DNA from: a virus
DNA: 30,628 nt
Direction: 5' to 3' (one strand)
Virus record (IMG/VR): IMGVR_UViG_3300024256_000557
The notes below the pieces were generated by a model. It saw nothing but the letters and a program-made list of their open reading frames with translations, had not been told where the DNA came from and did no database searches. Within the stretch, counting starts at the first letter, position 1; every line of letters begins with the position of its first letter. Of this stretch, positions 1,290 to 12,856 are shown piece after piece. The position numbers and the translations under genes are program-made.

Positions 1290-2365
1290 GCCGAACAAAT
1301 TACTCAACACTCGGTAATTTTTTCGAGTTTGATGAAGATGATTTAGAGTTTGAGAGAGTTACAAATAATATAGATACAGTAGATATTGATTACGGCGTAG
1401 AAGTCATTTTCAAGTATTATAGAAAACACGGTTTCCCTCACTACAAAATACGAGAAGATGAGAAGCATTCTCATATGAGAAAACTGCGTAAATTCGACAC
1501 AACCACTATATTTGAGGACAAGAAAATCATCCAGACTATGCATGCTCTACGGTTAGCCTGGTCCTACTTCCCATATTTTTGGGAAATTCAATGTGGGAAC
1601 TCTATGAAATCCCCAATGGAAACTTTCAATGATGATAAGAAGTTCAAGGCAACAATCAAAAAGTGTTGGACCTGGCAAATAAAACATTGGAGTGGTGAGG
1701 GAATACGGACCCATAATAAGTTTCACGAAAACAGATTACGTCAGTCAATAAAAATTTATACAGGTACACAATCAGTATCTAATTTTAGACCAACAGCTGC
1801 AAAGATGATTTATGAAAAATACGGTGGAGAAGTCATTAGGGATTTTAGCTCTGGATGGGGCGGCAGACTATTGGGGTTCTTAGCATCATCAAATACCAAA
1901 CATTATATTGGTACTGAACCATCCACCAGAGCATACGAAGGTCTATTAGAAATGAAAAAAGATTTTTCGTATTTAGGGAAAAAAGTTGATATATATAAGT
2001 GTGGGTCAGAAACATACAGAACAGATCCTGATATATTAGATTTAGTTTTTACATCACCACCATATTTCGACACTGAGAAATATAGTGATGAACCAACACA
2101 AAGTTATATAAAATTTCCTACATTAGACAGCTGGGTAAATGAATTTTTATTTCAATCATTTGAAAATGGTTATTACGGATTAAAGGATGAGAAGTATATG
2201 ATTATTAATATAGCAAATACATCAAAACATAAAACAATAGTGGGAAGTACAATTAAAGTTGCGGAAAGGGTCGGCTTCACTCACGTAGATACAATACAAT
2301 TAACTCTTTCATCAGTTATGGGGAAAGGTATGAAACTGGAGCCTTGCCTAATTTTTCAAAAATAA
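1286..2365 (+). CDS. Amino (N4-C/N6-A) DNA methyltransferase
   Basis: SAM-binding motif I 'DFSSGWGG' followed by catalytic motif IV 'FTSPPY' (alpha order); GTGA overlap with the upstream gene. Confidence 0.85.
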   Translation: MSRTNYSTLGNFFEFDEDDLEFERVTNNIDTVDIDYGVEVIFKYYRKHGFPHYKIREDEKHSHMRKLRKFDTTTIFEDKKIIQTMHALRLAWSYFPYFWEIQCGNSMKSPMETFNDDKKFKATIKKCWTWQIKHWSGEGIRTHNKFHENRLRQSIKIYTGTQSVSNFRPTAAKMIYEKYGGEVIRDFSSGWGGRLLGFLASSNTKHYIGTEPSTRAYEGLLEMKKDFSYLGKKVDIYKCGSETYRTDPDILDLVFTSPPYFDTEKYSDEPTQSYIKFPTLDSWVNEFLFQSFENGYYGLKDEKYMIINIANTSKHKTIVGSTIKVAERVGFTHVDTIQLTLSSVMGKGMKLEPCLIFQK

Positions 2366-2399
2366 ATGAATAAAATAACTTCATTTTTTTACTTTAGTT

Positions 2400-2407
2400 A
2401 TATTTAT
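2400..2407 (+). promoter_or_regulatory. ATATTTAT putative phage promoter motif upstream of endonuclease cassette 1
   Basis: Intergenic, preceded by a T-rich tract and followed by SD AGGAG. The same octamer lies at 7791 and 11921 in equivalent positions. Confidence 0.45.
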
Positions 2408-2422
2408 TATAGGAGATGATAA

Positions 2423-2608
2423 GTGGGAAGAATAAAGAAACATATTACGGTAGATGAAAAGAAACAAGCTCAACGTAAGTGGTCTTTAGATTATTATCAT
2501 CGAAATAAAGATGAAATAAATAAAGAAAAAATGGAGAAATATTATGAAGAAAAAATTAGGGAGTTTCAAAAGAAATTGTCCGACTTGCGAAAAGGTGATT
2601 ACTTATAA
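2423..2608 (+). CDS. Small basic helical protein (61 aa) overlapping the endonuclease gene
   Basis: AGGAG SD upstream and GTG start; Lys/Arg-rich; overlaps the next ORF by 65 nt. Confidence 0.6.
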   Translation: MGRIKKHITVDEKKQAQRKWSLDYYHRNKDEINKEKMEKYYEEKIREFQKKLSDLRKGDYL

Positions 2609-3221
2609 ACGGAATGATATAATGATTCGAGCTGAATCAATGGGGTTTAAGTGTAGGAGTTGCACTCATAAAGGTGAAAATAATGGAAATTATAAACATG
2701 GATTGATGGTAGGTGATGGAAAAAATAAAAAATGTTTGAATTGTGAGAAGTTGATACACATTAGGTCAGTATATTGAAGGGCGTGTTCAGTAATTGGTGA
2801 TAGAAACCCGTTTTATGGAAAAACTCACACCACATCTGTAATTAATGTTGTTATTAAATCAAATAAAAATAGAGCTGGAGTAAATTGTAAAGATACTACA
2901 AGAAAAAAACACAGAGTAAATATGATAAATAAATTAAAAAAATATCATCCTGATTTCCCAACTGGAGCTCCAATGTATAATGTAAAATCAATTTCGATAA
3001 TAGAACGATACGGAAAAGAAAATAGTTACAACTTCCAACACGCAGAAAACGGCGGTGAAGTTCAAGTGATTGGATATTTTGTAGATGGCTATGACAAAGA
3101 ACGGAATGTAGTGATAGAATACTATGAAAAACATCACAAATATCAAAAAGAACGAGATGAAAGAAGAAAGCAAGAAATAGTTGATCATCTGGGATGTAAA
3201 TTTATAATAATAGAGGAGTAA
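2544..3221 (+). pseudogene. Free-standing homing-type endonuclease (Zn ribbons + NUMOD3-like + Vsr/DUF559-like nuclease), interrupted by one in-frame TGA at 2775-2777
   Basis: ORFs 2544-2777 and 2922-3221 share a frame, and the gap reads RACSVIGDRNPFYGKTH... without further stops. C-terminal 'GYFVDGYDKERNVVIEYYEKHH...LGCKFIII'. Confidence 0.75.
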
Positions 3222-3223
3222 AA

Positions 3224-3772
3224 ATGCACGAAAGTAAAGAAGTATTTTATAAAAATTTGGAGTGGGGAGTAGACATACATACTAATACTATGTATCTCAC
3301 ATACGACATAGATGCAGATAGTTTATATTCAACAATGACCAGATTTGACCAGTTAGTTAAATACAATAAAGGTGAAGATATAAACTTGGTAGTCTCGTCT
3401 TATGGTGGAGATGTTTATGCGATGTTAGGAACAATAGATTATTTCAGATCACTTCCAGTAAAAGTGAATACTCATTGTTTTGGAGTAGCAATGTCCGCAG
3501 CAGCAGTCATCCTCGCATGTGGAACCGGAGTTCGTTCAATGAGCATAAATTCAACAATAATGGTGCATGAGGGTTCAGCATTTGAGTCAGGTAAAACATC
3601 AGATGTACTAAAAGGTGCAGAACACCTGAAAAAATTACAAGCAAATATCAATCGTATTCTCGGTAAAGTAACAAATAAAGACCATAAATTTTGGACGAGA
3701 ATATCTAAAAATGATGTGTATTTAACGGCAGACGAAGCATTGGAATACGGCATTGTTGACATTATAAAATAG
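3224..3772 (+). CDS. clpP: ClpP-like serine protease
   Basis: 'SYGGDV', catalytic Ser in 'AMSAA', His in 'IMVHE', C-terminal 'YLTADEALEYGIVD'. Confidence 0.9.
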   Translation: MHESKEVFYKNLEWGVDIHTNTMYLTYDIDADSLYSTMTRFDQLVKYNKGEDINLVVSSYGGDVYAMLGTIDYFRSLPVKVNTHCFGVAMSAAAVILACGTGVRSMSINSTIMVHEGSAFESGKTSDVLKGAEHLKKLQANINRILGKVTNKDHKFWTRISKNDVYLTADEALEYGIVDIIK

Positions 3773-3784
3773 GAGTTATAAATT

Positions 3785-4207
3785 ATGACTAAATTTATCA
3801 AAGATAATAAAAAAAGAGTAATCTACGGAAACGATGGTTCACCAGATACAATTGAAGTGAACCCACAGTCAAATAACATCATAGACAAAATGGAACGAGA
3901 ATATCCAGAAATGATGAAAGAGTTTCGTAAAATACAAGAAGAACAATATGAGTTATTTGCCAAAAAACAGCAAGCATATGGAAAAAATTCTATTTTAATG
4001 GGTGGTGATATAAATAAATCTGATGATAGACAAATGGCACTATCAGGAGTAGTAATTAGATTGAATGATAAATTACAGAGATTATTAAATCTTGTATTAA
4101 AAAATAAGAAAAGTGCGGTAGATGAAAACGTTGAAGATACATTTATTGACATTGCAAATTATGCTAATATAGCATTGGTTGTTAGTAGAAAAAAATGGGG
4201 AAAATAG
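3785..4207 (+). CDS. DUF1599 / nucleotide-modification-associated domain 1 protein
   Basis: 'KKQQAYG...IRLNDKLQRL...EDTFIDIANY' matches the family pattern (KxxxYG, RxxDKxxR, DTxxDxxNY). Confidence 0.7.
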   Translation: MTKFIKDNKKRVIYGNDGSPDTIEVNPQSNNIIDKMEREYPEMMKEFRKIQEEQYELFAKKQQAYGKNSILMGGDINKSDDRQMALSGVVIRLNDKLQRLLNLVLKNKKSAVDENVEDTFIDIANYANIALVVSRKKWGK

Positions 4208-4316
4208 TTTTTCCTGATAGTTATTATAGAACAAGGACAGCATTCGACGGAGTGTTTCCTGAAACCTGTTTAAGTAAGGATAACTTGTTCTATAACATAA
4301 ATCTGAACAGGAGAAA
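4208..4316 (+). ncRNA. Structured leader upstream of the GIY-YIG gene
   Basis: Perfect 12-bp inverted repeat 4224-4235/4284-4295, inner hairpin 4236-4258, and outer stem 4208-4216/4308-4316 covering the AGGAG SD. Folded by hand only. Confidence 0.5.
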
Positions 4317-4320
4317 TAAA

Positions 4321-5109
4321 ATGATTATCTACAAAGCTACTAACAAAGTCAATAATAAAAGTTATATTGGTCAAACAATTAAACCATTAACACAAAGAAT
4401 ATCAGAACATTTACATGCATAACGAAATGATCCAGCAACCTATTTTCATAGATCAATTAGAAAACATGGGAACGAAAATTTTAGTTGGAAAGTTATAGAT
4501 AATTCAGCAAAATCTATTGGTGAGTTAAATCTATTAGAACAAAAATACATTAAAGAATATCACACATTCCGTGGTGATCCAGAATGTAATGGATATAACT
4601 TAACTACAGGTGGGATGAATAAATTATTGTCAATTGAAACCATTAATAAAATAAGGAATACACGAATATCAAATAATGGTTATGCACACTCAAAGGAATC
4701 ATTAGATAAAATGGTTGCAACTAGAACCAAAAATAACAGTTGGAAACATTCAGATGAAACCAAAGAAAAACTTAGAATATCGAGTACAGGACGTAAACAT
4801 TCAGATGAATCCAAATTAAAAATGTCCATATCTAAAGTAGAATGGCATAAGACTGTTGATATCACTGGAAAGAAAAATCCATTTTATGGTAAAAATCATA
4901 CAGACGAACTTAAACTTTATTTTAAAAAATTATATGCTAAACATTGGATAGTTACATTTCCAAATGGCAACACTAAAACATTTTTAGGTAAAAAAGAAGT
5001 TAAACAGTATATTATGGAGTATACTATGAAAAATAATGAAAAAGTAAGTTACTATAGTTTATTTTATTATGGTAAAAATGGTCACAACTGGAAAGTTGAG
5101 AAGAAATAG
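4321..5109 (+). pseudogene. GIY-YIG homing endonuclease with NUMOD3 repeats, interrupted by one in-frame TAA at 4420-4422
   Basis: 'MIIYKATNKVNNKSYIGQT...QRISEH', then stop, then in-frame 'RNDPATYFHRSIRKHG...ELNLLEQKYI...GYNLTTGG' joining ORF 4615-5109 (NUMOD3-like 'KHSDETKEKL', 'GKKNPFYGKNHT'). Confidence 0.85.
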
Positions 5110-5184
5110 ATGGACACCTTCAGGGACATTTCAGTTTATGGAATTATTGTCGAGATAGTTCGTAGGGGTAGTTGGGGAAAATAA
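5110..5184 (+). pseudogene. Orphan 24-codon copy of the DUF1599 gene 3' end (MDTFRDISVYGIIVEIVRRGSWGK)
   Basis: Ungapped 12/23 amino-acid identity to the last 23 residues of ORF 3785-4207, ending in the same WGK-stop. Confidence 0.75.
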
Positions 5185-5303
5185 TGTATAGTTATAAATG
5201 TGACACTGGACTCTATGAATCAGATTCTTGGATCGGATTGATGATAGAAATAATTAAACATAGAACTTGGCATTTAGTAAACCACGGTAAGTGGATAGAT
5301 TAG
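5184..5303 (+). CDS. Small hypothetical protein, 39 aa (MYSYKCDTGLYESDSWIGLMIEIIKHRTWHLVNHGKWID)
   Basis: Not in the ORF track. TAATG coupling to the upstream remnant; its TAG overlaps the AGGAG SD of the thioredoxin gene. Confidence 0.6.
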   Translation: MYSYKCDTGLYESDSWIGLMIEIIKHRTWHLVNHGKWID

Positions 5304-5313
5304 GAGAAATAAA

Positions 5314-5559
5314 ATGAAAACTGCAGATTATTATACGGCGAACTGGTGTGGTCCCTGTAAAACTTTCAAACCAATCATATTGGAACTTGTGAGTGAGGGA
5401 TATAACATAACATTACACGACATAGATACTGAACGAGATTTGGCACTAACAAATAGAATACAAAGTGTTCCAACGCTCGTCATATCAGAGAACGGTGAAG
5501 AGGTGGATAGATTAGTTGGAGTGCATACAAAACAGTCCGTCATTTCAAAATTGTCTTGA
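5314..5559 (+). CDS. Thioredoxin
   Basis: WCGPC active site; 'IQSVPTL' cis-Pro loop. Confidence 0.9.
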   Translation: MKTADYYTANWCGPCKTFKPIILELVSEGYNITLHDIDTERDLALTNRIQSVPTLVISENGEEVDRLVGVHTKQSVISKLS

Positions 5560-5584
5560 CTTTAACTTATTTTTTACGTATATT
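5556..5584 (+). promoter_or_regulatory. Sigma70-type promoter (TTGACT - 17 nt - TATATT)
   Basis: Near-consensus -35 and -10 hexamers with ideal spacing, just upstream of ATG 5597. Confidence 0.6.
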
Positions 5585-5596
5585 TAGGCATAAAAT

Positions 5597-6466
5597 ATGA
5601 AAAGTATAAGCTATTCGCAATTTTCTAAATGGGATAGGTGTCCTCACGCCTGGAAACTATCTTATGTAGATAAAAAATCTGTATTTGAGGGAAACATTTA
5701 TACAATTTTTGGAACCTCGATGCATGAAGTATTACAAAAATATATAAAAGTAATGTATACAGATAGTGTAAAGAAGGCCGATGAATTATATCTTGATGAA
5801 TTATTAGAAGATAGACTCAGAATAAACTTTTTGGACACTATGAAAACCAATGGTGGTGTAGAGATTTGTACAAAAAATGAAATGAACGAGTTTTACCAAG
5901 ACGGAATAAAAATAATAGATTTCTTTAAGAAGAAACGAAATCAATATTTCAGTAAAAAGGGTTATGAGTTACTTGGCATTGAATCTGCATTAGATTATAA
6001 TATGAAAAAAGCGAAATTTAAGGGATTTATAGATTTGATAATTCGTGACGTTAAACGTGAACGAATAAAAATTATTGATATTAAGACCGCAACATACGGC
6101 TGGAACAAATATCAAAAAGCAGATACGAACAAAACAGCTCAGTTATTGTTATATAAACAGTTCTTCTCTAAGCAGTTTGATGTTCCATTAGATAGAATTG
6201 ACGTAGAGTATTTCATAGTAAAGCGAAAACTATATGAAGGAACAGATTACCCACAAAAACGAATTCAGACATTCATCCCAGCAAATGGTACTCCATCTAT
6301 AAACAAGGTTAATAGACGATTAGAGAGTTTTATAGACAACTGTTTTACAGTGGATGGGGAATACCGAACAGACCATATTTATAGTAAATTACCATCAGTA
6401 AAGAACTGTAAATGGTGTGAATACACAGACCAACCAGATTTGTGTGATAAGAAACCTGAGAATTAA
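5597..6466 (+). CDS. PD-(D/E)XK exonuclease, Cas4/AddB-like with probable Fe-S cysteines
   Basis: 'SISYSQFSKWDRCP', 'GFIDL...IIDIKT', C-terminal 'CKWC...C'. Confidence 0.8.
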   Translation: MKSISYSQFSKWDRCPHAWKLSYVDKKSVFEGNIYTIFGTSMHEVLQKYIKVMYTDSVKKADELYLDELLEDRLRINFLDTMKTNGGVEICTKNEMNEFYQDGIKIIDFFKKKRNQYFSKKGYELLGIESALDYNMKKAKFKGFIDLIIRDVKRERIKIIDIKTATYGWNKYQKADTNKTAQLLLYKQFFSKQFDVPLDRIDVEYFIVKRKLYEGTDYPQKRIQTFIPANGTPSINKVNRRLESFIDNCFTVDGEYRTDHIYSKLPSVKNCKWCEYTDQPDLCDKKPEN

Positions 6467-6907
6467 ATGATAGGAAGTAATTTTAGTTTAAGGATGAAAT
6501 TATCATATTTTATTAATACAGAAAATGAAAGCGATGTAATAGATAAAATAAATGAGATATATGGATTATACCCATTTAAACTTCAGCTATGGTATGATGA
6601 GGGTGAAGTAGCACCATCAGACTTAAAGGGATTTTTGGAACGATATGAAAAAATCCTTCACTATAAAACAACCATTACAGTCGGAAATACACATAAAATA
6701 AATGAATTTACGTGGTTTAATATAACTCATAAACGAGATATATTATTGGAATCCCCGTTAAGATTTCAGTATTGGTTCACGGGATCATCAGCTTTTGATG
6801 GTTTAATGGATGGATTAGAAGAATTTAAGAGTTGTGTAACATTTGTAACTTCACCAAAACCACAAAAATCACATCAACCAGTAAGAAAGCAAAAAAGGAA
6901 TGATTAG
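6467..6907 (+). CDS. Hypothetical protein
   Basis: 146-aa ORF packed between neighbours; the start could be ATG 6494. Confidence 0.55.
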   Translation: MIGSNFSLRMKLSYFINTENESDVIDKINEIYGLYPFKLQLWYDEGEVAPSDLKGFLERYEKILHYKTTITVGNTHKINEFTWFNITHKRDILLESPLRFQYWFTGSSAFDGLMDGLEEFKSCVTFVTSPKPQKSHQPVRKQKRND

Positions 6908-6910
6908 ATT

Positions 6911-7315
6911 ATGAAAAGAATTGGAATCGTTGGAAGTAGAAAATATATCAACAGGCGAAAAATTCGAGAATTTATTTTCAATTTAAGGGAAAAGTTCGGT
7001 GATGAAGTTGAAATTGTAAGTGGTGGGTGTAAACAAGGAGCTGACCACTATGCAAAGAAAATATCACTTGAATTTGATATGAAGTACGTAGAGTATCCAC
7101 CAAAACATTTTCAGTATAACCAACATTGTATATTGGATTCCAGTGAATACGGAAAACCATACAGAGTTACCAATTATTTTAACAGAAATAAACAAATAGC
7201 AGAACATAGTGATTATATAGTAGCATTTATACCAAAGGGTCATACATCAAGGGGAACGAATAATACAATAGAATATGCAACAAAATTAGATAAAAAAGTA
7301 GTTATTTTAGATTAA
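6911..7315 (+). CDS. SLOG-superfamily (DprA/YspA/DUF2493-like) protein
   Basis: 'IGIVGSR', 'IVSGGCKQGAD', 'RNKQIAEHSD', 'SRGTNNTI'. Confidence 0.75.
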   Translation: MKRIGIVGSRKYINRRKIREFIFNLREKFGDEVEIVSGGCKQGADHYAKKISLEFDMKYVEYPPKHFQYNQHCILDSSEYGKPYRVTNYFNRNKQIAEHSDYIVAFIPKGHTSRGTNNTIEYATKLDKKVVILD

Positions 7316-7346
7316 TCTGATATATATGTATATATGAGGAATAATT

Positions 7347-7550
7347 ATGAGGATAAAAGATAATACAAAACTTACTTCTGTTAAAATAATAACGGATTTA
7401 TACAAGAGATTTAAAGAAATTGCACTGAGAGAAGAATTTACATTACAAAAATTAGTAAATAGATCAATGGATAAATATTTGAGTGATGAAGAATACAAAA
7501 AATCTATTGTAGAATATGATGGGCTTGAAGCAAGTGGTAGTAATTTTTAA
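7347..7550 (+). CDS. Small ribbon-helix-helix-like DNA-binding protein
   Basis: 'KLTSVKI' strand then 'LYKRFKEIA...TLQKLVNRSMDKYL'; GAGGA SD. Confidence 0.55.
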   Translation: MRIKDNTKLTSVKIITDLYKRFKEIALREEFTLQKLVNRSMDKYLSDEEYKKSIVEYDGLEASGSNF

Positions 7551-7571
7551 ATAGTTTATAGGGAAACGGTT

Positions 7572-7760
7572 ATGAAAGAGAATGAAATAATAGATTTACC
7601 AAACGACTCATTTATGAGCAATGAAACTATACATTTTGAGATGCCACATATGACATTACATTTTACCATTGATGAATGGTATTTGTTTATGGGGCATATA
7701 TTTGAAGTTAGTGAAGCTGTAGATATGGTTATGAATAAAGATAATATGGCAAAAAGTTAA
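7572..7760 (+). CDS. Hypothetical acidic protein, 62 aa
   Basis: ORF with a GGGA SD-like sequence upstream. Confidence 0.45.
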   Translation: MKENEIIDLPNDSFMSNETIHFEMPHMTLHFTIDEWYLFMGHIFEVSEAVDMVMNKDNMAKS

Positions 7761-7790
7761 AAATAAAATGATGTTTTATTTAATTTCTTG

Positions 7791-7798
7791 ATATTTAT
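7791..7798 (+). promoter_or_regulatory. ATATTTAT putative phage promoter motif upstream of the PD-(D/E)XK cassette
   Basis: Intergenic, context TTTCTTGATATTTAT. Confidence 0.45.
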
Positions 7799-7821
7799 AT
7801 AAAAGATATAAGATATATAAT

Positions 7822-8001
7822 GTGAAATCAAATACAAAAAAAATAGCACCTATAGAATTAGAAGTCGTAACTTTTAAAAAGTTACAAAAAATAATAGCTA
7901 AATATTCTGACGATGGTGTAAAATTTGTGTCGGTTAGAGAGGCGTTAGTTAATTTAATTGATGAAAAATATGAACAGATTAGTGGAAGTATAAAATGGTA
8001 G
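7822..8001 (+). CDS. Small ORF, 59 aa, possibly RHH-like (VKSNTKKIAPIELEVVTFKKLQKII...VSVREALVNLIDEKY...)
   Basis: Not in the ORF track. GTG start, no internal stop, overlaps the endonuclease ATG at 7995. Confidence 0.5.
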   Translation: MKSNTKKIAPIELEVVTFKKLQKIIAKYSDDGVKFVSVREALVNLIDEKYEQISGSIKW

Positions 8002-9002
8002 TTTGTGAAATATGTGGTGATACGATGAAAATGAGAATCAATGGCTCACATTTAAAATCTAAACACGGTATATCATTGTATGAATACAAATTTAAATTTC
8101 CAAAATCAAATTATGGTGAATATGTTGTTGGAAAGTTTGATTGTAAAGAATGTGGTGATATTGTAAGTTCCAATTCAGCAATTAAAGTTAACCATTTAAA
8201 ATTACATAATTTATCGGTTGACAATTATAATATAAAACACCATAAAATTGAATGTGAATGTGGGTGTGGTGAATTTACAGAATATAGTTATACGAGACAC
8301 ACATATAATAGATTTTTAGGTGGTCACTGTGAAAGTTGGAATAGTGGACTTACAAAAGATACTAATTCTTCTATAAAACGTCAATCTGAATATATGATGA
8401 AAAATAATCCTATGAATGACAATAAAGTAGTTGAACGAATGTTATCCCATCCAAATAGTAAATGGACAAGGAAGCGGATTCAGAGTAGAAGTGACAGTTA
8501 TAAAAAGACAATGCTCAAAAAGTATGGTGTATCTAACTACTTCAAAACGAGTGAATTCAGAGAAAAATCTGAGACTACTTGTTTGAAAAAATACGGAGTT
8601 AGAAATGCTCAACAAAATACAGAAGTTCATCAAAAAAATATTAAAAGTAGATTAAATTTTAAAGATTATAAAACACCATCTGGTAAGTTATTAAGAGTTC
8701 AAGGGTATGAACCACAGGCGTTAGATATTTTGTTTAAGTTGTACGATGAAAGTGATATTTTCACAGATAAAAAAGGCATGCCAAAATTTTGGTATAATAA
8801 TGGTAAAGATAGAAGGTATTTTCCAGATATTTTTATAAAATCTGAAAATAAGTTTATAGAAGTTAAATCAATGTGGACGTATAAAACACACGAAGATACA
8901 GTTGAATCAAAATGTAAATCGGTTACAGATAAATTATATAAAATTGATGTATGGATATTACATGAAAATGGTAAATTACTACAGGAATATAAATATGAAT
9001 AA
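7995..9002 (+). CDS. Homing-type endonuclease: C2H2/Cys Zn fingers, KKYGV repeats, C-terminal PD-(D/E)XK domain
   Basis: 'CEICG...HLKSKH', 'CECGCG', two 'KKYGV' repeats, 'RYFPDIFIKSENKFIEVKS'. The ORF is intact. Confidence 0.75.
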   Translation: MVVCEICGDTMKMRINGSHLKSKHGISLYEYKFKFPKSNYGEYVVGKFDCKECGDIVSSNSAIKVNHLKLHNLSVDNYNIKHHKIECECGCGEFTEYSYTRHTYNRFLGGHCESWNSGLTKDTNSSIKRQSEYMMKNNPMNDNKVVERMLSHPNSKWTRKRIQSRSDSYKKTMLKKYGVSNYFKTSEFREKSETTCLKKYGVRNAQQNTEVHQKNIKSRLNFKDYKTPSGKLLRVQGYEPQALDILFKLYDESDIFTDKKGMPKFWYNNGKDRRYFPDIFIKSENKFIEVKSMWTYKTHEDTVESKCKSVTDKLYKIDVWILHENGKLLQEYKYE

Positions 9003-9558
9003 AATCACGGAGGTATCTACAGATCATCTGAATAGTAAGAAGAAAAAAATCTTACTTTTATCAGATGATCTTTGACTCAGAATGAGTAGTGGGGTTGGTA
9101 CAGTTTCCAAAAATTTTGTACTGGGTACACTTGATAAATACGATTGGGTCCAGGCCGGTGGTGCAATAAAACATCCAGAAGACGGTAAAGTGGTGGATAT
9201 GAATGATTCAGTTAGAGAAGAAACTGGAATAGAAGATGCTTACCTCAAAATATATCCTATTAGTGGATATGGAAATCAAGAGTTATTACGACAACTAATG
9301 AAATTGGAAAACCCAGATGCCATCTTACATTTTACTGATCCGAGGTTCTGGGGCTGGTTATATCAAATGGAACATGAAATTAGACAACTCATCCCCATAT
9401 TTTATTATGCACTTTGGGACAATTTTCCATCACCATTATACAATGCAAGATACTACGAGAGTTCTGATTTGATAATGGGAATATCCAAACAATCTTGTGC
9501 AATGCATAAAGATGTTTTAAACAGAAGTGGTGTCGACACTGAATGGATTGGAAAATAA
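8995..9558 (+). CDS. GT-B (GT4-like) glycosyltransferase, N-terminal part, with in-frame TGA at 9073-9075 (CTT TGA CTC)
   Basis: MNKITEVSTDHLNSKKKKILLLSDDL*LRMSSGVGTVSK...; first Rossmann strand ILLLSDD lies before the stop; 'PDAILHFTDPRFW'. Confidence 0.7.
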
Positions 9559-9585
9559 GTTTTATTAGAAAAATAAGGAGTGAAA

Positions 9586-10497
9586 ATGAACGAGAAAAGT
9601 AAAGTTATGTTATCATACGTTCCACATGGTATTCCAGAAGATAAGTTTTTCCCAATAAATGAGTTAGATGTGGAAAAATGGAAGAAACTACAAGGATATA
9701 GAAAATCAGTGTTCCACGATAAAGATAAAGATTTCGTAGTATTTTGGAATAATCGGAATATCAGACGGAAAGTTCCAAGTGACGTGATTTTAGCATATAA
9801 AACATTCTGTGATACCTTACCCAAAGAGAAATCAGACAAATGTGTATTATTAATGCACACTCAACCAGTAGACCAGAATGGAACAGATTTACCAGTAGTA
9901 GTAAATGAAATTTGTCCAGATTACGATATTGTATTCTCACACCAAAAGATAGACGACGAACAACTCAATTTTCTATATAATATTGCAGATGTTACTATAA
10001 ACATGGCAAGTAATGAAGGTTTCGGATTGGGTACAGTCGAAAGTCTAATGGCAGGAACACCAATCACTACAAATACCACAGGTGGTCTACAGGATGCAAG
10101 TGGCTTCAAATATAAGGGTAAATTCCTAACAACTGAAGATTACGATTGGGTTCATTCACTACACGATGACAGAAAATGGAAAGACAATCCTGATCTTACT
10201 TACGGTGATTGGGCAAAACCAGTCTGGCCATCAAATAGAAGTTTACAAGGTTCAATTCCAACACCGTATATTTTCGACGACAGATGTAGATGGGATGATG
10301 TAGCAGATAGATTATTAGAATGGTATAATGAAGGACCAGAAAAAAGAAAAGAATGTGGACAGTTAGGTAGGGAGTTTTTACAATTAGAAGAAATTGGAAT
10401 GTCAGCTAAAAATATGTGTAAACGTATGGTACATGACATGGACACTGCACTTGAAAACTGGACACCAAGAAAACGATTTACGTTATATAAAGTTTGA
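9586..10497 (+). CDS. GT-B (GT4-like) glycosyltransferase, C-terminal part
   Basis: Same frame as the upstream part; AAGGAG SD then ATG 9586; 'YVPHGI', 'NRNIRRK', 'ASNEGFGLGTVESLMAGTP'. Confidence 0.85.
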   Translation: MNEKSKVMLSYVPHGIPEDKFFPINELDVEKWKKLQGYRKSVFHDKDKDFVVFWNNRNIRRKVPSDVILAYKTFCDTLPKEKSDKCVLLMHTQPVDQNGTDLPVVVNEICPDYDIVFSHQKIDDEQLNFLYNIADVTINMASNEGFGLGTVESLMAGTPITTNTTGGLQDASGFKYKGKFLTTEDYDWVHSLHDDRKWKDNPDLTYGDWAKPVWPSNRSLQGSIPTPYIFDDRCRWDDVADRLLEWYNEGPEKRKECGQLGREFLQLEEIGMSAKNMCKRMVHDMDTALENWTPRKRFTLYKV

Positions 10498-10539
10498 TAA
10501 AAATGAATTCAAAATAATAACAGAAGAGGATTTAAATAT

Positions 10540-11886
10540 ATGAGCTATAAACCTTTAGTTTTGATAACTGCTCCGGTGGGAACTCGAAGTGGATATGGTA
10601 GTCACTCCAGAGATATTGCAAGGTCATTGATTTCTATGAATAAATTTGATATTAAAATATGGCCTGTTAGGTGGGGGAGCACAAGTCAAAATGCATTAAG
10701 TGAAAATGACCCAAATGATATTCCAATCATAGAGAGATTATTAGATAATCCAAATATGGATAGACAACCAGATATTCACATCCATATAGTAGTCCCAAAT
10801 GAATTCCAACCAATCGGTAAATTTAATATTGGTATCACAGCAGGATTAGAAACCACCGTGTGTCCCCCAGAATGGATAGAGGGATTAAATAGAATGAACT
10901 TGAATATTGTTCCAGCGACATTTGTTAAGGAAAGTATTGAAAAGGTCGTATTTGATAAACATGATAATCAAACTAAACAGAAAATTGGTGAAGTTAGATG
11001 TCAAACACCAATAGAAGTTTTATTTGAAGGTGCAGACACAAACATATACAAAACAACAAAAGAATTTTCAAAGGATTTGGTAGACGAGTTCGATAGTATA
11101 AAAGAAGATTTTTGTTTTCTATTCGTGGGGCATTGGTTACAAGGTGGTTTAGGAAATGACAGAAAAGATCTTGGTATGCTGATTAAAACCTTCTTGGAAA
11201 CATTTAAGAATAAGAAGAACCAACCTGCACTAATTCTAAAAACAAGTGGAGCAACACCCTGTATATTAGATAGAGAAGATATACTCGCAAAGTTGAACCA
11301 AATAAGACAGACAGTAGAGGGTAACTTACCAAACATTTATGTATTGCACGGTGATTTAAGAGATGATGAGATGAATGATTTATACAATCACCCAAAGGTA
11401 AAGGTTCACGTTTCATTCACCCACGGTGAGGGATTTGGTCGTCCATTACTTGAGGCATCTTTAAGTGAGAAACCAGTAATTGCACCAAACTGGAGTGGTC
11501 ATACAGATTTCCTGGATAGTAAAAAGTCTGTATTATTACCAGGTAGTATGAATGATGTAAAGAAAGAATCATTACAGAATGGAATGCACATAAAAGGAAC
11601 TCAATGGTTTACTGTAAATTACAATTACGCATCTAAAATGTTAAAGGATGTTTTTGATAATTATAATAAATACACGGTAAAGGCTAAGAAACAGGGTATA
11701 ATGAATAAAACAAAGTTCTCACTTGATGCAATGACTGTAAAATTTGAGAAAATACTCGACGCATGTTTACCTAATTTTGAAGCTCCACCACAACCGGTGG
11801 AACTTAAACTCCCGACGTTAAAAAAAGTCGGTGAAGTTAAAGAGTTACCGAAAATAAAACTTCCAACATTAAAAAAGGTAAATTAA
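10540..11886 (+). CDS. GT-B (GT4-like) glycosyltransferase with repeated basic C-terminal tail
   Basis: 'RSGYGSHSRDIARSL', 'FTHGEGFGRPLLEA...KPVIAPNWSGHTDFL'. Confidence 0.85.
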   Translation: MSYKPLVLITAPVGTRSGYGSHSRDIARSLISMNKFDIKIWPVRWGSTSQNALSENDPNDIPIIERLLDNPNMDRQPDIHIHIVVPNEFQPIGKFNIGITAGLETTVCPPEWIEGLNRMNLNIVPATFVKESIEKVVFDKHDNQTKQKIGEVRCQTPIEVLFEGADTNIYKTTKEFSKDLVDEFDSIKEDFCFLFVGHWLQGGLGNDRKDLGMLIKTFLETFKNKKNQPALILKTSGATPCILDREDILAKLNQIRQTVEGNLPNIYVLHGDLRDDEMNDLYNHPKVKVHVSFTHGEGFGRPLLEASLSEKPVIAPNWSGHTDFLDSKKSVLLPGSMNDVKKESLQNGMHIKGTQWFTVNYNYASKMLKDVFDNYNKYTVKAKKQGIMNKTKFSLDAMTVKFEKILDACLPNFEAPPQPVELKLPTLKKVGEVKELPKIKLPTLKKVN

Positions 11887-11887
11887 A

Positions 11888-11905
11888 ATGGAAATAATTG
11901 ATTGA
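11888..11905 (+). other. Mini-ORF MEIID*, candidate displaced 5' end of the gene now starting at 12856
   Basis: ATGGAAAT is shared with the start at 12856 and begins one base after the upstream stop. Confidence 0.4.
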
Positions 11906-11920
11906 AAATTGAATTTCTTT

Positions 11921-11928
11921 ATATTTAT
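11921..11928 (+). promoter_or_regulatory. ATATTTAT putative phage promoter motif upstream of the HNH cassette
   Basis: Intergenic, context TTTCTTTATATTTAT. Confidence 0.45.
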
Positions 11929-11966
11929 TTATGTATAAGTATGAATAAAACTTGGAGATAAAGTAA

Positions 11967-12122
11967 ATGAAACGACAACTAGTAAATTATACAGTAGATA
12001 AATCAGTGGTGAAGCAATTTAATGAGATAGCAAAGACCCATTCTATAAATAAATCATTGTTAATAGAAAATTTAATATTGGAATGGATAGATAAAACACG
12101 AAAACTGGATAATAATAAATGA
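11967..12122 (+). CDS. Small CopG/RHH-like protein, 51 aa (MKRQLVNYTVDKSVVKQFNEIAKTHSINKSLLIENLILEWI...)
   Basis: Not in the ORF track. GGAG SD, RHH strand-helix-helix pattern, ATGA overlap with the HNH gene. Confidence 0.7.
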   Translation: MKRQLVNYTVDKSVVKQFNEIAKTHSINKSLLIENLILEWIDKTRKLDNNK

Positions 12123-12856
12123 ATACTATTAAATGTAAGGCTTGTGGTGTGGATACTACAAATATAAAATATTGTTCAAATGAATGTTCTTGGAAAAGTA
12201 AGATAAAATACAATGTTAAAATAAAAAATGGTAAGTTTGTTAGGGATTGCCCAAGTTGCAAGTGTGAAGTATTCCATACAGCAAAGCAATCTTGTATAAA
12301 TCAAATTAGACATAAAGTGCAATGTAAATCGTGTGCTAGGTTAAAATTTAATAAAAGTGGTGATGGTAAATTGTTATATAAACGCATTTCAATGATGATG
12401 ATTGGTAAAAATAATCCATTCTGGGAAAAATGTGGTAAAGAGAATAATATGTACAAACCTGGTGTATTAGATAGATACATTAAGAAATATGGATATGATA
12501 ATTACGATGATTTTTTAGCTTCAAAAACGGATAAGCAGATATACAAAAAGAATGTTCTACGTATAACAAATTCACAGTCGGTACACTTATTACCAAATAG
12601 TGGAAAACGAGGTAGGTTGGGATATCATTTAGATCACATAGTTCCGATAAATTATGGGTTTGTAAATAACATACCGGTAGAATATATTGGAGATATAAGT
12701 AATTTACAATTTATTACATATAGCGAAAACGTTAGAAAGCACATAAAGTTATTTTTTGAAAGCAAGGATGTCCACTGTGGCAGTGAATTAAAGGGAGATC
12801 ATGCTGTATTAAGTACAATGTTTTTTAAATATTTTTTAAATAGGGAGGTAGTTTAA
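12119..12856 (+). CDS. HNH homing-type endonuclease with Zn ribbons
   Basis: 'CKACG...YCSNEC', 'RDCPSC...CKSC', 'YHLDHIVP...SNLQFI...EN'. The ORF is intact. Confidence 0.75.
   Translation: MNTIKCKACGVDTTNIKYCSNECSWKSKIKYNVKIKNGKFVRDCPSCKCEVFHTAKQSCINQIRHKVQCKSCARLKFNKSGDGKLLYKRISMMMIGKNNPFWEKCGKENNMYKPGVLDRYIKKYGYDNYDDFLASKTDKQIYKKNVLRITNSQSVHLLPNSGKRGRLGYHLDHIVPINYGFVNNIPVEYIGDISNLQFITYSENVRKHIKLFFESKDVHCGSELKGDHAVLSTMFFKYFLNREVV

Follow-up and report, generated by a model that had tools for sequence, protein, structure and literature searches.

Programmed translational bypassing is nearly unique to gene 60 of phage T4, and shorter natural counterparts have long been expected (PMC5009743). 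In the cassette that combines mobA with the bypass, self-cleavage is prevented by the insert, and the bypass often stays on after loss of the nuclease (10.1101/2022.08.31.505936). Also, pairing of the mRNA as it leaves the ribosome has been proposed to act in gene 60 as a forward "driver", and hops over a stop codon that lack a stimulator proceed at a low level in E. coli (10.1101/2024.12.09.627546). In synthetic stop-hops, nine bases give one residue, and no natural case was known to a review of 2016 (PMC5009743). Our full-text literature searches, furthermore, returned no report of a natural short stop-hop or of such a cassette in glycosyltransferases. Here, we describe a break in a glycosyltransferase gene within a stretch of 30,628 nucleotides from a marine phage (IMG/VR record IMGVR_UViG_3300024256_000557; the whole stretch is hereafter called the window), where an in-frame stop is flanked by two leucine codons. 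Judging from comparison with related alleles, this break is probably a programmed short bypass (a "stop-hop"), its six extra bases being the smallest version of a conserved recoding module that resides in a homing-nuclease cassette.

In terms of layout, the locus has much in common with T4 gene 60 in its MobA element: namely, take-off and landing codons that match each other, a stop immediately 3' of the take-off, pairing of the mRNA behind the ribosome, an adjoining free-standing homing nuclease, an N-terminal extension of the host gene, several host-gene backgrounds, a module that outlives its nuclease, and a host gene that also occurs split. There are also differences. The gap amounts to 3-12 bases here, as opposed to 47-50 in gene 60, and holds no stem-loop; the matched codons are Leu CTN instead of Gly GGA; the nuclease belongs to DUF7487 (PD-(D/E)XK-like) instead of HNH MobA; and the host gene encodes a glycosyltransferase instead of a topoisomerase. 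The hairpin upstream of the break shows strong conservation, unlike the 5' stem-loop of gene 60, for which none is seen between clades, and the two modules share no sequence homology. On the bypass reading, the module thus works like a gene 60/MobA cassette but is not a member of that family. Synthetic Leu-stop-Leu hops have the same layout as the window allele (PMC5009743; 10.1101/2024.12.09.627546), but they are artificial, low-level and without stimulators, while the alleles described here are natural, conserved and linked to a hairpin, and also include longer and out-of-frame gaps. The mitochondrial "byps" of Magnusiomyces capitatus, as far as they are outlined in the review, are likewise short inserts in coding sequences that are skipped in translation (PMC5009743); in that outline, they differ from the present alleles in occupying many sites per genome, in using other signals, and in having neither a homing-nuclease cassette nor an upstream hairpin.

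The window is phage-like, with about 30% G+C and every long ORF on the + strand, and contains no tRNA genes. Positions 9061-9090 read TCA GAT GAT CTT TGA CTC AGA ATG AGT AGT (S D D L * L R M S S), in a frame shared with the upstream ATG at 8995 and with the downstream ORF at 9082-9558 (Table 1). We compared the site with 162 homologous uninterrupted loci, which comprise two isolate phages (Microcystis phage Mel-JY01 and a Flavobacterium phage), 80 IMG/VR contigs and 80 metagenome contigs. Exactly one residue is present between DD and R in all the 162 loci (L in 150, M in 7, F in 4 and I in 1), none being two residues longer, and the window therefore carries six extra bases, just as the initial annotation had supposed, and the family motif that it expected is correct. 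The same six bases recur in contigs that were assembled independently: L163 and L164, which are identical over 6.5 kb, and L166, which has 2 SNPs in 6.5 kb. Indeed, the window allele is widespread; the exact 158-residue downstream ORF is indexed in 364 blocks of a public assembly collection. A scan of IMG/VR and the JGI metagenomes gave no relative of the window above 85% protein identity, and an exact 23-mer was absent from IMG/VR. As for the origin of the six bases, tandem duplication and hairpin templating were inspected by eye, and no convincing template was found. An alternative genetic code with TGA as a sense codon is ruled out: TGA ends 15 of the window's 42 genes (TAA ends 20 of the 42), no other gene in the window has an in-frame TGA, and the related alleles use TAG or lie out of frame.

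Table 1. Features of the interrupted glycosyltransferase locus in the window.
Feature	Position	Strand	Remark
Two small ORFs, head of the mobile cassette	7572..8001 (7572-7760, 7822-8001)	+	
Homing-type nuclease gene, DUF7487, PD-(D/E)XK-like	7995..9002	+	stop overlaps leader start (ATGAATAA)
Interrupted GT-B glycosyltransferase gene, three pieces	8995-10497	+	one reading frame throughout
Leader ORF, 26 codons + TGA	8995..9075	+	variable N-terminal extension, then K-K-I-L-L-L-S-D-D-L
RNA hairpin (predicted)	9021..9071	+	outer stem 9021-9031 with 9061-9071; inner stem 9034-9040 with 9050-9056
Putative take-off codon CTT (Leu)	9070..9072	+	CTN in 13/13 interrupted alleles
In-frame stop TGA, the whole gap in the window allele	9073..9075	+	
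Putative landing codon CTC (Leu) and first resumed codon AGA (Arg)	9076..9081	+	CTN-Arg in all alleles
Rest of N-terminal Rossmann-like half, 158 aa, called from ATG 9082, TAA 9556	9082..9558	+	55-85% identity to 160 homologues
Second break	9556..9585	+	TAA 9556, TAA 9574, Shine-Dalgarno AAGGAG 9575-9580, then ATG 9586
C-terminal (donor-binding) half	9586..10497	+	Pfam Glycos_transf_1 E 4.9e-9; aligns with fused homologues

The break is by no means confined to the window. By following gene calls with odd starts, relatives of the upstream nuclease and degenerate DNA patterns, we collected 13 interrupted alleles at one site, which represent 12 versions (Table 2); L171, L173 and 42 of the 43 matches to the loosest pattern were chance matches and were discarded. 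Recurrent matched codon-stop-codon inserts, together with purifying selection upstream of them, had been set beforehand as a test of the hop, and the outcome was positive, with all 12 versions following the order CTN-stop-...-CTN-Arg. The landing codon is in every allele the first CT past the take-off codon and lies immediately 5' of an Arg codon (AGA, CGT or CGA). The distance from take-off to landing is 6, 8, 9, 13 or 15 bases, which places the body in the 0, +2 or +1 frame of the leader; given these three frame relations, no single readthrough or frameshift event serves all of the alleles. A hop from Leu to Leu, on the other hand, would restore the family sequence, DDLR(M), in all 13.

Table 2. 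Codons at the break in the 13 interrupted alleles (12 versions); further gap bases are those between the stop and the landing codon (0-9).
Allele	Take-off	Stop	Further gap bases	Landing
Window	CTT	TGA	0	CTC
L179	CTT	TAG	0	CTA
L180	CTT	TGA	0	CTA
L186/L187	CTT	TAG	0	CTC
L190/L191	CTT	TAG	0	CTA
L218	CTG	TGA	0	CTG
L188	CTT	TGA	2	CTA
L175-L178	CTG	TAG	3	CTG
L184/L185	CTC	TGA	3	CTC
L165 and L170	CTG	TGA	7	CTA
L167/L172/L174	CTG	TGA	7	CTG
L189	CTT	TAG	9	CTA

The leucine codons at the break are restricted in a way that other leucine codons are not. All 26 take-off and landing codons in the 13 interrupted alleles are CTN, as compared with 67 TTR and 16 CTN at the corresponding Leu position of 90 distinct alleles without the break and with 20 TTR and 16 CTN among the remaining Leu codons of the interrupted leaders, although these counts are not independent trials because the interrupted alleles descend from one cassette family. 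The third positions of both codons vary freely, and a synonymous change of the first position from C to T was never seen. The C of the take-off codon is also part of a hairpin stem (see below), and the stem alone could hold that codon at CTN. The initial annotation had both codons read by tRNA-Leu(GAG), which is correct for the window but not for the family, where CTT is often paired with CTA and the rule is CTN with CTN. The stop is restricted as well: TGA is used in 7 of the 12 versions, TAG in 5 and TAA in none, although TAA is the commonest stop of the window. TGA and TAG are each read by one release factor. The leader is 24-29 residues long and keeps a basic run, which is also present in the uninterrupted homologues. 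In addition, the gaps of L188 and L189 contain GAGG just 5' of the landing codon; this recalls the small Shine-Dalgarno element 5' of the landing site in gene 60 but could equally serve a restart of translation.

The enzyme encoded across the break is a glycosyltransferase of the GT-B fold, GT4-like, with two Rossmann-like halves and a Glycos_transf_1 domain. The AlphaFold model of an intact homologue, L003 (pLDDT 90, pTM 0.90), matched MshA, PimB', HepE and a chlorovirus transferase in Foldseek with E values of 1e-15 to 1e-12. Residues 4-10 of this model form strand beta1, which is presumably the central strand of the N-terminal Rossmann-like half as in GT-B folds in general, and the leader is hence predicted to carry beta1 of the transferase. 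The break falls in the beta1-alpha1 loop of the model, which is flexible (pLDDT <50 at residues 16-20) and in which D11, D12, R14, S17, G18 and T21 are invariant.

Selection is evident on either side of the stop. In the last 12 codons of the leader, 10-17 base differences between lineages are accompanied by only 1-3 residue differences; I-L-L-L-S-D-D-L is essentially fixed with the synonymous sites between lineages saturated, and this beta1 segment is conserved although the accompanying nucleases diverge down to 41-46% identity. In the N-terminal half of the body, dN/dS is 0.063 at a dS of about 1.1 between the window and L165, both of which have the nuclease and the break. The bodies contain no internal stop except for a split at the linker between the halves; L175, L180, L184, L188 and L189 have complete fused ORFs, and the body of L170 is an open read of 450 codons as far as the end of the stretch examined. 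Comparison among lineages thus shows that the leader (24-29 codons) and the body are both under purifying selection, which in turn argues that both sides of the stop are translated and matter. Decay of the 26 upstream codons, which would have spoken against a hop, did not occur, since the beta1 leader is kept at the amino-acid level. A null allele, which the initial annotation had raised as a caveat, is likewise improbable; the break is not a one-off but recurs in 13 alleles with selected leaders and bodies.

Upstream of the stop, a large hairpin is predicted in the RNA. The 3' arm of its outer stem is made of the Ser-Asp-Asp codons and the CT of the take-off codon. Positions 9016-9075 of the window fold with -21.2 kcal/mol (z -5.2, a stability reached by 0 of 200 shuffles), and the values for all interrupted alleles range from -19 to -36 kcal/mol (z -3.9 to -9.7). 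The uninterrupted alleles (99 distinct sequences), by contrast, average -5.1 with none below -11.3, so that the hairpin is found in 13/13 interrupted versus 0/99 uninterrupted alleles; L116, which has a nuclease and an N-terminal extension but no stop, is among the alleles without it. When 11 alleles are aligned, paired cells make up 97.9%, and 4 of the 10 pairs are changed on both sides; 0 of 500 shuffles reached the observed pairing or covariation, and slid controls were 15-57% paired. Where the Asp codons are GAC, furthermore, the 5' arm changes from GATCATC to GGTCGTC, which converts the leader residues D-H to G-R, and the RNA pairing is therefore kept at the expense of the peptide. Folds around and 3' of the stop were no better than those of shuffles, and no stem-loop was found inside the gap of 3-12 bases. 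A small hairpin at 9075-9087, to which the initial annotation had drawn attention, has a z of +0.6 against shuffled sequence and is not conserved in the other alleles; the relevant structure is the large hairpin, which had been missed.

A few bases 5' of the 5' arm of this hairpin, we also noticed a Shine-Dalgarno-like GGAG (9009-9013 in the window) in at least 9 of the 11 leaders inspected (the window, L165, L167, L170, L175, L179, L180, L186 and L188), which is kept in two codon registers, AAG GAG and GGA GAA. This element might hold back the following ribosome and let the hairpin re-form.

The nuclease gene that overlaps the leader start matches Pfam PF24308 (E 1e-45) and the PHROGs family "homing endonuclease" (E ~1e-7), with a weak TnsA-like match. 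Its distribution among relatives is sporadic: about 135 related loci lack this gene and the two small ORFs before it, and have the orf7347 homologue directly adjoining the glycosyltransferase; among the 162 homologous loci, the small ORFs have homologues in L116 only (69-71% identity). Relatives of the nuclease with 41-72% identity, on the other hand, precede the same transferase with the same kind of break. Of the nuclease gene, L167/L172/L174, L170 and L186/L187 retain only about 50 codons from its 3' end, and L188 has no remnant at all; nonetheless, the hairpin and the stop are retained in L188 and in all the remnant-bearing alleles. The window and L167 share about 92% identity over 8880-9098 and about 72% beyond, which fits the cassette having been copied into a different transferase background. 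These arrangements show a link between the break and the mobile nuclease cassette that had escaped the initial annotation.

More distant DUF7487 nucleases (34-42% identity) also precede the transferase, in L116 (1919-4353), L006, L043, L060, L181 and L183, and some of these cassettes add an N-terminal extension without stop, gap or hairpin; they may cut elsewhere or represent a stage before the insert arose. Also, at least three endonuclease cassettes occur within 2391-12856 of the window, around 2400, 7800 and 11900, and a small ORF lies upstream in each, in agreement with what had been remarked at the outset.

The transferase gene of the window is broken a second time, at the linker between its halves (Table 1). 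This second break is part of a 63-base in-frame insert relative to fused homologues; the distance from LLLSDD to YVPHG is 564 bases in the window, 492-510 in most fused homologues and 552 in four with a longer linker. At the same linker, L165 has an endonuclease-like ORF with Cys pairs (1243-1725), L172/L174 have a decayed remnant of about 340 bases between the transferase halves, L183 has a DUF723 gene, and Mel-JY01 (L001) is split. The linker split thus resembles a "gene in pieces" created by another homing endonuclease, which the window would since have lost. In the outline given in the literature, mobE in nrdA of phage Aeh1 is similar in that an endonuclease sits at the break in relatives and both halves are intact (10.1101/2022.08.31.505936); this likeness concerns the linker split at 9556-9585 only and not the Leu-stop-Leu break.

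From these features, we infer the following course of events at the Leu-stop-Leu break. Translation would begin at ATG 8995, coupled to the nuclease stop, and yield a 26-residue chain that ends in beta1, with the ribosome positioned at CTT and TGA in its A site. It would pause there, its peptidyl-tRNA-Leu paired with CTN and its A site occupied by a stop that one release factor reads; in a share of the ribosomes, the peptidyl-tRNA-Leu would be retained without termination, the tRNA would un-pair, the mRNA would slip by 6-15 bases, and the tRNA would re-pair at the next CTN, 6 bases on in the window and 8-15 in the other alleles. Decoding would then resume at the Arg codon to give the family sequence ...SDD-L-RMSSGVG. 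At take-off, the 3' arm of the hairpin would be located just behind the P site, in the mRNA exit path, and on leaving the ribosome it may re-pair with the exposed 5' arm and pull the mRNA forward by roughly the length of the stem, which matches the range of the hop distances (6-15 bases). By analogy with mobA/gene 60 in T4, furthermore, the insert may disrupt the nuclease's own target in a very conserved stretch and thereby serve self-protection. The initial annotation had already read the site as a minimal natural bypass, and the recurrence, the codon rule and the selection on the leader favor that reading of the sequence; its further suggestion that the bypass throttles the enzyme found no support. 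With slightly less assurance than for a bypass at this break, we also lean toward the view that short hops (6-15 bases) driven by a hairpin form a natural family, maintained in evolution and mobile together with a homing nuclease of the PD-(D/E)XK type.

The main rival to the stop-hop is restart at ATG 9082. Translation would terminate at TGA and release the 26-residue leader, giving a three-piece enzyme whose beta1 peptide is supplied in trans or dispensable, and the hairpin would stop the ribosome from drifting backwards. Restart after a nearby stop is common in phage operons, and the same gene is already split at the linker with its own ribosome-binding site; in 12 of the 13 alleles, moreover, an ATG is present two codons past the landing codon and 6-13 bases past the stop, which counts against a hop, and L188 even has GAGG 5' of this ATG. 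Sliding on re-initiation has also been discussed (PMC11194080). No ribosome-binding site, however, precedes ATG 9082 in the window, and L189 (LRSVSG) has no ATG at the resume point, so that restart is not possible there. The Leu-Arg codons between the stop and the ATG are kept through synonymous change (AGA, CGT, CGA), with the landing codon always CTN, next to a gap that varies freely; an untranslated spacer would need neither. The extra gap bases, furthermore, are always 5' and never 3' of the landing codon, and a free 26-residue peptide is an unlikely supply of beta1, the first strand in the L003 model. We thus consider restart unlikely, though still a serious competitor to the programmed bypass.

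Considerably less probable is a selfish scar, in which the cassette inactivated the transferase and the module persists through cleavage protection and homing. Some transfers of the module are indeed recent, since L165, L167 and L170 have almost the same leader (dS 0.07) on very different bodies, and the drop in identity between the window and L167 occurs just past the break, as a scar would have it. Against such a scar are the low dN/dS of the body and its freedom from internal stops besides the linker split, the conservation of beta1 in the leader over deep divergence of the nucleases, and the occurrence of the exact allele in 364 assembly blocks.

Readthrough of the stop, with insertion of two residues in the window and +1 frameshifting in the out-of-frame alleles, is more doubtful still. 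The break is in a flexible loop, and TGA followed by C, as in the window, is a weak termination context. This explanation nonetheless requires a separate mechanism for each frame class and leaves CTN at both codons without explanation, and no extra loop residues are found in any of the 162 homologues, where D11, D12, R14, S17 and G18 are invariant. A prfB-type +1 site (CUU UGA C) is present at 9070-9076, but the +1 frame does not open the downstream ORF; a +1 shift in the window would add Phe, Asp, Ser and Glu and then meet TGA at 9083-9085. Slightly less probable again is skipping at the RNA level, where the hairpin, acting on a nascent 3' CU, would advance RNA polymerase and realign the transcript on the next CT, so that some transcripts are gapless. 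Strict matching is limited to the first two bases (CT), which the hairpin directly adjoins, much as a terminator hairpin does at the release site, but there is no conserved U-tract and the strict TGA/TAG-type stop is left without explanation; we know of no precedent for skipping of this kind in bacteria. An assembly or sequencing artefact has a negligible chance, because the six bases recur in independently assembled contigs from three samples, with the identical break in each, and related versions occur in many other assemblies.

Breaks of this kind also have a bearing on annotation, because gene callers give truncated genes with an internal or false ATG, or read the stop through under an altered code, and the true product is thereby missed. 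In L189, for example, the public gene calls (1950-3467 and 461-880) read through TAG, but two other genes of the contig plainly terminate at TAG a few codons short of the called end. TAG as a sense codon is therefore ruled out in L189, and the in-frame TAG of the break may have misled the gene caller into an altered genetic code.

In terms of recoding, the natural variants constitute a ready-made mutational series with five distances, three frame relations, two stops, several pairs of Leu codons and a compensated hairpin. This series allows tests of what triggers hopping and of whether mRNA pairing behind the ribosome drives the hop. If the programmed bypass is true, it would represent a family of hops independent of T4 gene 60, and selfish nucleases would repeatedly hide their own targets in highly conserved coding sequence by means of tiny recoding inserts.
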